Source: an uncultured delta proteobacterium
Lineage (GTDB): Bacteria > Desulfobacterota > Deferrimicrobia > Deferrimicrobiales > Deferrimicrobiaceae
Direction of reading: 5' to 3'
Assembly (NCBI GenBank): GCA_963770975.1
Contig: CAVYRM010000001.1
Coordinates: 10,236 to 74,235 of the forward strand
DNA length: 64,000 bases
This document shows, in pieces, positions 39,923-42,507 of this stretch. The position numbers were made by a program, and so were the translations under genes. The notes under the pieces are model-generated. The model was not told the DNA's origin and ran no database searches. It worked only from the letters and a program-made list of their open reading frames with translations. Numbering within the stretch: the stretch's first letter is position 1; each line of letters opens with the position of its first letter.

Positions 39923-41140
39923 ATGAACAACGGCGATACGGCGTGGCTTCTCGTTTCAGCGGCATTCGTGATGCTGATGACACCCGGCCTTGCGATGTTT
40001 TACGGGGGGATGGTCCGAAGGAAGAACATCCTGGGGACCGTCATGCAGTCGTTCATCGTCATCGGGGTCATCAGCATCGAGTGGATGATCGTCGGCTACA
40101 CGTTCACCTTCGGTCCCGATCTGTTCGGCGTGATCGGCGACCTCTCCTGGTTCGGACTGCGCGGAGTCGGCAACGCTCCTTTCAAGGGATATGCGGCTAC
40201 CGTCCCCCACCAAGCCTTCATGATATACCAAATGATGTTCGCGGTGATCACCCCGGCACTCATATCGGGGGCTTTCGCCGAACGGTTCAGATTCTCCACC
40301 TATCTCGTCTTCATCCTCCTGTGGGCACTGCTGGTCTATAACCCGGTGGCCCATTGGATATGGGGGATCGGCGGGTGGCTCCGGAATCTGGGGGCGCTCG
40401 ATTTCGCGGGCGGTTCGGTCGTACACCTCACCGCGGGAGTAAGCGCGCTTGCCGCGGCGATCGCAACAGGGAAACGGAAAGGGTACGGGAGGGACATACT
40501 CGCCCCCCACGACCTTCCTATGACCGTCCTGGGCGCCGGCATTCTCTGGTTCGGGTGGTTCGGTTTCAACGCCGGCAGCGCCCTTGCGGCGGACGGGGTC
40601 TCCGTGAGCGCCTTCGTCGCAACCCACATGTCCGCATCCGCAGCGACCGTGGCCTGGATGGTCACCGAGTGGATCCATCGCGGGAAACCTACCGTGCTGG
40701 GGGCCGCATCCGGATGCATCGCGGGTCTCGGCACGATCACCCCCGCCTCCGGGTTCGTGACTCCTCCGGCGGCCCTCGCGATCGGAATCGTCGCCGGGAG
40801 CGTGTGTTACGGCGCCGTAATGCTCAAGGTGAAATTCAGCTACGACGATTCCCTTGACGTCGTGGGCGTCCACGGGGTCGGGGGAATCCTGGGAATGATC
40901 GCAACCGGGTTGTTTGCGACGCTGTCCGTGAACGCCGCGGGATCGAACGGCTTCTTCTACGGGAATCCGAAACAGCTGGGGATCCAGGCCCTCGCTGTCG
41001 CCGTCGTGCTCGTCTACTCCTTCGTCGTGACGTACGGGATCTTACGGATTCTCGAGAAAACGATGGGGCTTCGGGTAACGGCGGACGAGGAGGTCATCGG
41101 GATCGATCTCTCGCAGCACGGCGAGGCAGGGTACAATTAA
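39923..41140 (+). CDS. amt: ammonium transporter (Amt family)
   Basis: GDTAWLLVSAAFVMLMTPGLAMFYGG, DFAGGSVVHL, and GVHGVGGILG. GGAGGAGG upstream of the ATG. Confidence 0.9.
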   Translation: MNNGDTAWLLVSAAFVMLMTPGLAMFYGGMVRRKNILGTVMQSFIVIGVISIEWMIVGYTFTFGPDLFGVIGDLSWFGLRGVGNAPFKGYAATVPHQAFMIYQMMFAVITPALISGAFAERFRFSTYLVFILLWALLVYNPVAHWIWGIGGWLRNLGALDFAGGSVVHLTAGVSALAAAIATGKRKGYGRDILAPHDLPMTVLGAGILWFGWFGFNAGSALAADGVSVSAFVATHMSASAATVAWMVTEWIHRGKPTVLGAASGCIAGLGTITPASGFVTPPAALAIGIVAGSVCYGAVMLKVKFSYDDSLDVVGVHGVGGILGMIATGLFATLSVNAAGSNGFFYGNPKQLGIQALAVAVVLVYSFVVTYGILRILEKTMGLRVTADEEVIGIDLSQHGEAGYN

Positions 41141-41211
41141 AGAGGTCTTTCCACGTGCAGAATTGGGGCATAATGGCGATTACCAACGGGTTTCTTGCGG
41201 AAGGAGGGACC

Positions 41212-42507
41212 ATGTCCCGCCCCGGGCCGATCCTGATCGTCGACGACGAAGCGGGGATCAGGCACTCGCTCGAAGGGGTCCTGAAGGACGAGGGATTCTC
41301 CTGCGCCCTCGCCAAGGACGGGCCCGACGCGCTCTTCCTGCTGTCGTCGGTCCATCCCTCGCTCGTCCTCCTCGACATCTGGATGCCGGGGATGGACGGG
41401 ATAGAGACGCTGCGGCGCATCAAGGAAACGTCTCCCGGGACCCCCGTGATCATGATGAGCGGGCACGCGACGATCACCACGGCGATCAAGGCGACGAGGA
41501 TCGGCGCTTCCGATTTCATCGAGAAGCCGCTCGAGATCGACCTGCTGCTGAACGCGGTCCGAAGCGCCCTCGGAGTCCGGGGCGCCGCACGGGACGGCTC
41601 GTCGGGAGGGGCGTCGGAACCGGCCGAGGCGCAACCCGCTCCCGAGCTTCAATCGGTGGTGTTCGAACGGCAGGAGATGCGCGGCTCCCTCATGCCGCAA
41701 CGTACCCTGTCCCGAAGCGCGGTGATGTACGGGCAGGGGCTTCACTCCGGCAAGAAAAGCGGCCTGATCTTCGAGCCGTTGGGACCCGGATCCGGGATCC
41801 ATTTCGTGGGAGTGACCGACCACCTGGCGGTTCCCGCCCACCTCGATTTCGTCGGGTCGACGGGATACGCCACGACGGTGCGGCTCGGGAGCACCCAGGT
41901 CGGAACGATCGAACACGTGATGTCGGCGATCAACGCGTACGGCATCGCCAACCTGCTCATCAAGTGCGACGGCGAGGTGCCTGTCCTGGACGGTTCCTCC
42001 GTGGAGTTCTGTTCCCTGTTCGAGGAGGTCGGTTTCGAGAACCAGGCGGGGGAGTGGTACCGGATCGCGCTGAAGGAGCCCGTCGAGATCGAATCCGGCA
42101 AGGTGTCGATCCGCCTGGAGCCGTGCGACGCGTTCGAGATCGACTACACGCTCGAATACCCGGCGCCGGTCGGGAAACAGCGGTTCGTCTTCCGGCTCGA
42201 CGACCCCTCGGTCTACCGGAAGGAGATCGCCCCCGCGCGGACCTTCGGCTTCGTGAAGGACATCGGCCTGCTGCAGCGGCAGGGATTGGCCCTGGGCGGC
42301 CGCTTCGACAACTTCGTTCTCTTCGGCGACGAGGGACCGATCAACAGCGCCCTGCGGTTTCCGGACGAGCCGGTCCGCCACAAGATCCTGGACGCGATCG
42401 GCGACATGTACCTCCTCGGCCGGCGATTGCAGGCCAGGGTGGTCGCCCACCTGACGGGCCATTCGCACAACATCTCCGTGCTGAAAAAAGTCCGGGCCTT
42501 CCTGTAG
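41212..42507 (+). CDS. lpxC: response-regulator receiver domain fused to UDP-3-O-acyl-N-acetylglucosamine deacetylase (REC::LpxC)
   Basis: REC: ILIVDDE, LLDIWMPGMDG, MMSGH, IEKP. Then a ~45-aa Gly/Ser/Ala/Pro linker. LpxC: QRTL...GLHSGKK, TIEHV, ARTFGF, VRHKILDAIGD, TGHSHN, collinear with E. coli LpxC including Zn and catalytic residues. Confidence 0.85.
   Translation: MSRPGPILIVDDEAGIRHSLEGVLKDEGFSCALAKDGPDALFLLSSVHPSLVLLDIWMPGMDGIETLRRIKETSPGTPVIMMSGHATITTAIKATRIGASDFIEKPLEIDLLLNAVRSALGVRGAARDGSSGGASEPAEAQPAPELQSVVFERQEMRGSLMPQRTLSRSAVMYGQGLHSGKKSGLIFEPLGPGSGIHFVGVTDHLAVPAHLDFVGSTGYATTVRLGSTQVGTIEHVMSAINAYGIANLLIKCDGEVPVLDGSSVEFCSLFEEVGFENQAGEWYRIALKEPVEIESGKVSIRLEPCDAFEIDYTLEYPAPVGKQRFVFRLDDPSVYRKEIAPARTFGFVKDIGLLQRQGLALGGRFDNFVLFGDEGPINSALRFPDEPVRHKILDAIGDMYLLGRRLQARVVAHLTGHSHNISVLKKVRAFL

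Follow-up and report, generated by a model that had tools for sequence, protein, structure and literature searches.

LpxC carries out the committed reaction of lipid A synthesis, the one under the tightest regulation, and is a major target for antibiotics. In other bacteria, the enzyme is degraded by FtsH/LapB or Lon, and the C-terminal tail of Escherichia coli LpxC carries the FtsH degron. To our knowledge, every mode of LpxC control described so far is transcriptional, proteolytic, or based on substrate or partner competition. Proteolysis is the mode reviewed for E. coli (PMC12444477). In Desulfovibrio vulgaris, lpxC is the only mapped target of DVU2931/DVU2934, DVU2934 being an NtrC-type regulator (PMC3333781), and in Rhodobacter sphaeroides, NtrYX affects the envelope and lpxC mRNA (PMC7240162). 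Here, we describe a gene, REC::lpxC, in which a receiver domain (REC) and LpxC are joined in one open reading frame (ORF). It lies in a 64,000-nt stretch of contig CAVYRM010000001.1 (positions 10,236 to 74,235; assembly GCA_963770975.1, an uncultured member of the Deferrimicrobiaceae), which we refer to as the window. Full-text literature searches turned up no paper on a fusion of LpxC with a receiver or with NtrX, in line with a first-pass annotation of the window, made from the letters alone, which knew of no experimental work on the architecture; in a 2025 review of lipid A regulation, the terms "fusion" and "response regulator" are both absent from the text.

The fused gene starts at an ATG with a ribosome-binding site, GGAAGGAGGG, just 5' of it; there is an alternative in-frame GTG at 41155, but homologs begin at the ATG instead. 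The first-pass annotation had described a complete NtrC-like receiver joined to a full-length LpxC, and this is borne out by Pfam, TIGR00325, and the homologs. The receiver matches PF00072, has NtrX as its top NCBIfam receiver match, and contains all of the residues that had been pointed out: the DD pocket (D11/D12), the phospho-acceptor D55 (LLDIWMPGMDG), S83 (MMSGH), and K105 (IEKP). Sigma54_activat, AAA_lid, and HTH_8 found no Pfam match in the window protein (P0001), which has neither the AAA+ sigma54 domain nor the Fis-type helix-turn-helix (HTH) of an NtrC/NtrX enhancer-binding protein. The protein descends from NtrC/NtrX-type regulators but is not one; solely its receiver is of that lineage.

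The enzymatic half is equally well defined. PF03331 matches residues 163–427 (4e-79) and spans positions 1–266 of the 268 in the model, and the TIGR00325 (lpxC) score of 219.2 bits passes the curated cut-off of 187.25. When aligned with the LpxC structures of Pseudomonas aeruginosa, E. coli, and Aquifex aeolicus, the motif residues already recognized by the first-pass annotation, E234/H235 (TIEHV), H390/K391/D394 (HKILD), and H417 (GHSHN), together with D398 (in HKILDAIGD) and T344/F345, correspond to P. aeruginosa LpxC residues with catalytic or zinc-binding roles. In E. coli numbering, we take the zinc ligands to be His79, His238, and Asp242 and the catalytic residues to be Glu78, His265, Asp246, Thr191, and Lys239; the fused protein has the zinc and catalytic set as H235, H390, D394, E234, H417, D398, T344, and K391. 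These positions are kept in at least 93% of 120 LpxC domains, fused and canonical, and across 70 diverse fusion proteins they show little or no variation. An AlphaFold2 model derived from an alignment of 70 fusion proteins has a mean predicted local distance difference test score (pLDDT) of 89.7, and its LpxC domain superimposes on A. aeolicus LpxC (1yh8) with a template modeling (TM) score of 0.97 and a root-mean-square deviation of 1.2 Å over 273 columns. In the model, the two-domain beta-alpha-alpha-beta LpxC fold is intact, while linker residues 124–139 are disordered (pLDDT <50). By its predicted domains, the fusion belongs with the response regulators whose output is enzymatic, in this case the enzyme that commits the cell to lipid A.

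The best 120 homologs (76–82% identity) all carry REC and LpxC in one chain of 430–442 aa. They come from JGI, ENA, NCBI, and Logan and represent more than 100 independent assemblies, with several labeled Candidatus Deferrimicrobium or Deferrimicrobiaceae. The linker is near constant in length, with the slice that contains it measuring 52–58 aa in all homologs. A lost stop codon or a linker indel could have fused two genes during assembly, as the first-pass annotation cautioned, and frameshifts do exist elsewhere in this assembly (an acnB in three frames, an amt on contig 9 in two). The homologs refute this: the same continuous ORF recurs in the >100 independent assemblies with a steady linker length, and the architecture also appears in divergent lineages, so the probability of an artifact is practically nil.

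The fusion is also not a spare copy. The source assembly, which is 65% complete, has one LpxC match only. We compared 24 genomes of the same genus, which is Ca. Deferrimicrobium in public records; some of them are 97–100% complete in 6–10 contigs. Each has a single LpxC locus with an open frame of ~440 aa, apart from one genome with a fragmentary extra LpxC match and one (G017) with a canonical lpxC besides the fusion. The genes lpxA and lpxB are present, side by side. Because the fused gene is the sole LpxC in nearly all 24 genomes and lpxA/lpxB accompany it, gene content marks it as the probable housekeeping LpxC of the cell, and the concern that it might be a degenerate paralog beside a canonical lpxC falls away. 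Its sole-copy status suggests a role in the pathway, with deacetylase activity predicted.

The survey of receiver plus LpxC architectures that the first-pass annotation had proposed was run against 1.84 billion cluster representatives and yielded dozens of 50%-identity clusters with the fusion, in two architectures. Short forms (410–505 aa, down to 33% identity to the window protein) consist of REC, linker, and LpxC. Long forms (650–740 aa) consist of REC, Sigma54_activat, AAA_lid, (HTH_8), and LpxC. None of the 19 long forms inspected has the GAFTGA loop, the arginine-finger motif, or the Walker B glutamate, so they cannot be sigma54 activators; Walker A and sensor II are retained in most. 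A maximum-likelihood tree built from 120 LpxC domains groups every fused one in a single clade (Shimodaira-Hasegawa-like approximate likelihood ratio test [SH-aLRT] 99) that is separate from canonical LpxC; five N-terminally truncated calls fall in this clade too. The short and long forms do not sort into separate groups there, and well-supported branches demand at least 4–5 switches between them. Because the two forms are intermixed across supported branches, the AAA+ core was probably lost repeatedly.

By source name, the family includes Nitrospinota, "Deltaproteobacteria" metagenome-assembled genomes (MAGs), Spirochaetota (BBM88387.1), Syntrophorhabdaceae, and Nitrospira/Nitrospiraceae MAGs; its members are annotated throughout merely as LpxC or NtrX. 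Among the matches listed in a contig scan, most were canonical LpxC; the fused loci that carried a name were few, on a "Deltaproteobacteria" MAG chromosome and in Nitrospira/Nitrospiraceae MAGs. Long fusions lie directly behind an NtrY-like kinase, in the order DUF4390-kinase-fusion (P0126) or kinase-fusion (G037), and in G037 the long fusion is the sole LpxC. A Syntrophorhabdaceae-type short fusion (~413 aa; L047/L048, 8001–9242) lies near dnaA-dnaN-gyrB with no adjacent kinase, which adds another lineage where fused gene and kinase are not linked.

To place the fused receiver, we turned to relatives with a canonical lpxC. In the class-mates G025 and G026, and on contig C2 of G017, lpxC belongs to an operon with the order yebC-ruvCAB-(DUF2905)-lpxC-DUF4390-kinase-activator-Ser/Thr kinase. 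The kinase is NtrY-like (transmembrane-HAMP-PAS-HisKA-HATPase), and the activator, of NtrC/NtrX type, retains HTH_8 and an unbroken GAFTGA-type loop. Upstream of canonical lpxC, three of the four regions inspected (G017, G026, and G033) contain a sigma54-type -24/-12 match (e.g. TGGCATGCCTGTTGC), situated 48–73 nt short of the 3' end of the segment and near the canonical lpxC start; the G025 region had no match under the pattern used. These matches agree with the D. vulgaris finding that DVU2934 targets lpxC. No -24/-12 match was found upstream of the fused gene in the window.

In each canonical genome, the top non-self match of the fused receiver is the operon regulator, at 110–123 bits compared with 83.5–103 for the next match (G017, 122 vs 84; G033, 123 vs 87; G026, 110 vs 84; G025, 111 vs 103). 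The fused receiver and the operon regulators have the signature DxW(L/M)P / SGH / EKP in common, which paralogous receivers do not have. By similarity score and signature, the fused receiver is the closest relative of the NtrX-like activator of the lpxC operon.

The same operon is visible in the genus in reduced form. All nine near-complete same-genus genomes have ruvB-(DUF2905)-DUF4390-kinase-Ser/Thr kinase, from which lpxC and the regulator are missing. The kinase, now an orphan, is intact (81–86% identity), and the gap between it and the Ser/Thr kinase gene is 47–62 nt at the former regulator site in these nine genomes. One example of the orphan kinase is G005:C1:29961–32192. Altogether, the regulator is missing from 27 of 28 genus genomes. 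The one that kept it is G017, where an intact operon with canonical lpxC and regulator occurs with the fusion in one genome; in the tree, this canonical lpxC clusters with those of class-mates, outside the fused clade.

Two other genes of the operon deserve mention. The Ser/Thr kinase directly 3' of the kinase-regulator pair has a C-terminal PEGA domain (G017 contig C2, L027 3–1709; L030 3118–4797; L036–L044) and still adjoins the orphan kinase after loss of the regulator; it may be part of the same signaling module. The gene for a DUF2905-like membrane protein in the ruvB-DUF4390 gap is kept in four genomes (L036–L038, L041) and absent from five (L039, L040, L042–L044), which indicates that the locus was remodeled more than once.

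Altogether, these comparisons suggest that two-component control of lpxC transcription has been replaced by phospho-control of the enzyme, with the orphan kinase as its partner, a reading to which we assign a probability of about 0.6. Direct phospho-control would account most economically for what the comparisons show. In the simplest account of its history, a fused gene of the NtrX::LpxC family would have entered or arisen in the lineage and made canonical lpxC and its dedicated activator dispensable, while the kinase stayed. The orphan NtrY-like kinase would phosphorylate Asp55 of REC::LpxC, and phosphorylation state would set LpxC activity, most probably by relief of an inhibitory contact or a change of oligomeric state, as in CheB or NtrC1-type receivers; by analogy with these, the unphosphorylated receiver would restrain LpxC and phosphorylation would release it. 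With the kinase acting on the enzyme, the signal that once raised lpxC transcription would now act on LpxC itself. That phosphorylation activates is a guess, made because the ancestral logic was that of an activator (signal up, more LpxC). The fuller proposal, in which an NtrY-like envelope sensor kinase serves as a dedicated "LpxC kinase" that phosphorylates and activates the sole LpxC and thereby sets lipid A flux, is tentative and falls a little short of probable.

Several observations weigh against direct phospho-control by the orphan kinase. The kinase does not adjoin the fused gene in the genus, and the ruvCAB-DUF4390-kinase region is unassembled in the 65%-complete source genome, so the partnership is drawn from relatives. 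A search of the source assembly for the NtrY-like kinase returned paralogs only (25–34% identity, mostly kinase core). The cognate kinase that the first-pass annotation had hoped to identify thus has a candidate in the orphan DUF4390/NtrY-like kinase of relatives, not assembled in the source genome itself. Loss of lpxC and its regulator may have been a single ancestral event, which would count as one observation, not many, and the intact G017 operon lies on a MAG contig of only 10.6 kb, so mis-binning is possible. The structure model offers no usable interdomain evidence: with a predicted TM score (pTM) of 0.73 and a disordered linker, a fixed REC-LpxC interface is neither favored nor ruled out. 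Finally, only five LpxC residues (G184, Y243, K251, C267, and L370) are specific to the fused clade among the 120 domains, too few for a docking surface to be evident.

Some relatives also have another kinase-regulator pair just 3' of the fused gene, which is a further point against the orphan kinase as partner. It lies in an insert of ~5.4 kb between fused lpxC and mpg (L018 9811–15620; L019, L020, L024, L025) that holds a histidine kinase, an NtrC-like regulator, a HicB-like small protein, and a single-domain receiver and is absent from the window. As a candidate cognate kinase, we ranked this accessory pair below the orphan kinase because it is absent from the window and several relatives and has its own regulator.

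The separation of kinase and fused gene also bears on whether the receiver still works. It could be a relic, or a constitutive structural or dimerization module that is no longer phosphorylated, in which case LpxC would be an ordinary enzyme and the kinase would signal elsewhere, perhaps together with the neighboring Ser/Thr kinase or through a different regulator; the AAA+ and HTH regions of the family have visibly decayed, so parts of the ancestral regulator can become vestigial. Conservation of the receiver argues against this. In a survey of 70 fusion proteins (33–82% identity), D12, S83, and K105 never vary, and conservation of D11, D55, and F102 is 90% or more. Within the genus, the receiver is as conserved as the enzyme (0.80 vs 0.84), while the linker drifts (0.38): its first half is variable (0.23 for residues 121–140) and its second half (PELQSVVF..RG) moderately conserved (0.55 for residues 141–158), compared with ~0.8 for the domains. 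The orphan kinase, intact in every near-complete genome, moreover needs a receiver partner. We consider a defunct receiver quite improbable.

A phosphorylated receiver could instead control the amount or place of LpxC rather than catalysis, through exposure to a protease, recruitment to the membrane, or assembly with other Lpx proteins. The known control of E. coli LpxC is proteolytic (PMC12444477). The fused protein ends five residues past the LpxC fold and has no C-terminal degron tail, so another turnover handle would be needed, and the lack of a clade-specific docking surface on the LpxC domain fits this alternative as well. However, no protease or adaptor was indicated in our analysis, and receiver-enzyme fusions commonly control activity directly, as in CheB, PleD, and RpfG. 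In addition, a complete AAA+ scaffold still separates receiver from enzyme in the long forms, pointing to control via conformation or oligomeric state. Altogether, control of amount or place is unlikely, and we keep direct phospho-control of activity as the preferred reading.

The position of the fused gene 3' of amt raised one more possibility. The first-pass annotation placed the gene where glnK usually stands and read this as a hint of a nitrogen/envelope link, in which the fusion would replace GlnK beside amt and couple nitrogen status to envelope synthesis. Parts of this hold: the ORF and its 71-nt distance from amt were both confirmed from the sequence, no glnK follows the window amt, and the receiver is of NtrC/NtrX type. 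Scanned for a terminator-like site, a sigma70 consensus match, and a sigma54 -24/-12 element, the 71-nt spacer yielded none of them; because no terminator-like site intervenes, amt and the fusion may be co-transcribed, though in this genome only.

Synteny contradicts the nitrogen link itself. Within 8.5 kb of the fused gene, amt was found at none of 13 same-genus loci, where the upstream neighbors differ (another same-strand gene, ilvD on the opposite strand, and others). The regular amt-glnK pair of the source genome is on contig 9, which is also where one amt is split into two frames, and a further amt is on contig 2; relatives likewise have one glnK-paired and one unpaired amt. The fused protein has no match to the P-II domain (PF00543) that a GlnK/P-II partner would have. 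Judged by gene order, the adjacency to amt is a local rearrangement and a coincidence, not a system, and a GlnK-like role for the fusion is highly improbable.

Downstream, gene order is more stable (coordinates of the main features are collected in Table 1). The window block at 42542–46319 comprises mpg, an alpha/beta hydrolase gene, a FecR-like gene, a gene for a small Zn-ribbon protein, lexA, and a 222-aa ORF. This block lies 3' of the fused gene in most genomes of the genus, and from mpg to lexA its gene order is kept at most same-genus loci. Placement of the Zn-ribbon gene differs from genome to genome. On the other side of amt, an aconitase B-like gene (acnB, 35475–38011, minus strand) is broken over three frames, with frame changes near 36880 and 36590, the cause being pseudogenization or an indel error in the assembly.

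Table 1. Features of the REC::lpxC locus in the window, and sigma54-type matches upstream of canonical lpxC in relatives (last three lines).
Feature	Position	Strand	Description and evidence
amt (ammonium transporter, unpaired paralog)	39923..41140	+	PF00909 1.5e-128, TIGR00836; incidental neighbor
amt to REC::lpxC spacer	41141..41211	+	71 nt
REC::lpxC gene	41212..42507	+	431 aa + stop; ORF and translation, Pfam, TIGR00325
Receiver (REC) domain, NtrX/NtrC type	41230..41562	+	residues 7-117; PF00072 3.8e-31
Phospho-acceptor Asp55 codon	41374-41376	+	
Interdomain linker	41572..41685	+	residues 121-158 (~38 aa); alignment and model
LpxC domain	41686..42492	+	residues 159-427; PF03331
E234/H235 codons	41911-41916	+	
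H390 codon	42379-42381	+	
D394 codon	42391-42393	+	
H417 codon	42460-42462	+	
mpg (3-methyladenine DNA glycosylase), convergent	42542..43126	-	PF02245 1.1e-55; opens conserved downstream block
sigma54-type match TGGCATGCCTGTTGC	L027 6790-7200	-	
sigma54-type match TGGTATGTTAGTTGC	L031 9820-10140	-	
sigma54-type match TGGAATAGTATTTGC	L032 8600-9010	+	

If direct phospho-control is true, the known LpxC controls would be joined by one in which His-Asp phosphotransfer acts directly on an essential biosynthetic enzyme, and several phyla would have a mode of outer-membrane homeostasis that is unrelated to FtsH/LapB or Lon proteolysis. The family can be read as a series, from a transcription factor beside its target gene, to a fusion with a dead ATPase core, to a minimal receiver-enzyme, and as such would illustrate the collapse of a regulatory circuit onto its own target. 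The window would represent the end state, a minimal fusion unlinked from its kinase, in a genus where the operon has been stripped in 27 of 28 genomes and one transitional genome is left.

How, then, does the fusion compare with known systems? It resembles NtrY/NtrX-type systems in its receiver lineage (top NCBIfam match NtrX and the DxW(L/M)P / SGH / EKP signature), in lpxC as the controlled function, and in a presumed kinase of the same build, which in relatives has an NtrY_N match and is preceded by DUF4390. Unlike those systems, the fusion has no AAA+ domain, HTH, or DNA binding, and its output is an enzyme fused in cis; in R. sphaeroides NtrYX, by contrast, the effect on lpxC is indirect and transcriptional. 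With CheB (REC-methylesterase), PleD/WspR (REC-GGDEF), and RpfG (REC-HD-GYP), it shares a layout in which a flexible linker connects an N-terminal receiver to a C-terminal enzyme, and by analogy, control of activity by aspartyl phosphorylation would be expected of the fusion as well. Its output differs in being a zinc deacetylase of an essential biosynthesis rather than a signaling enzyme; the likeness is a functional analogy between outputs that are not homologous.

Canonical LpxC from E. coli, P. aeruginosa, and A. aeolicus has the fold of the fusion, shares its zinc and catalytic residues, and acts at the Raetz pathway step predicted for it alongside lpxA and lpxB, whereas the fusion has an N-terminal receiver, falls in a separate clade, and lacks the enterobacterial C-terminal degron tail. 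A further comparison is with the long NtrX::LpxC fusions of Nitrospinota and "Deltaproteobacteria" MAGs, which belong to the same LpxC clade and receiver lineage and, in G037, likewise provide the sole LpxC; relative to these, the window protein has lost the entire AAA+/HTH core, and its gene no longer lies beside the kinase.

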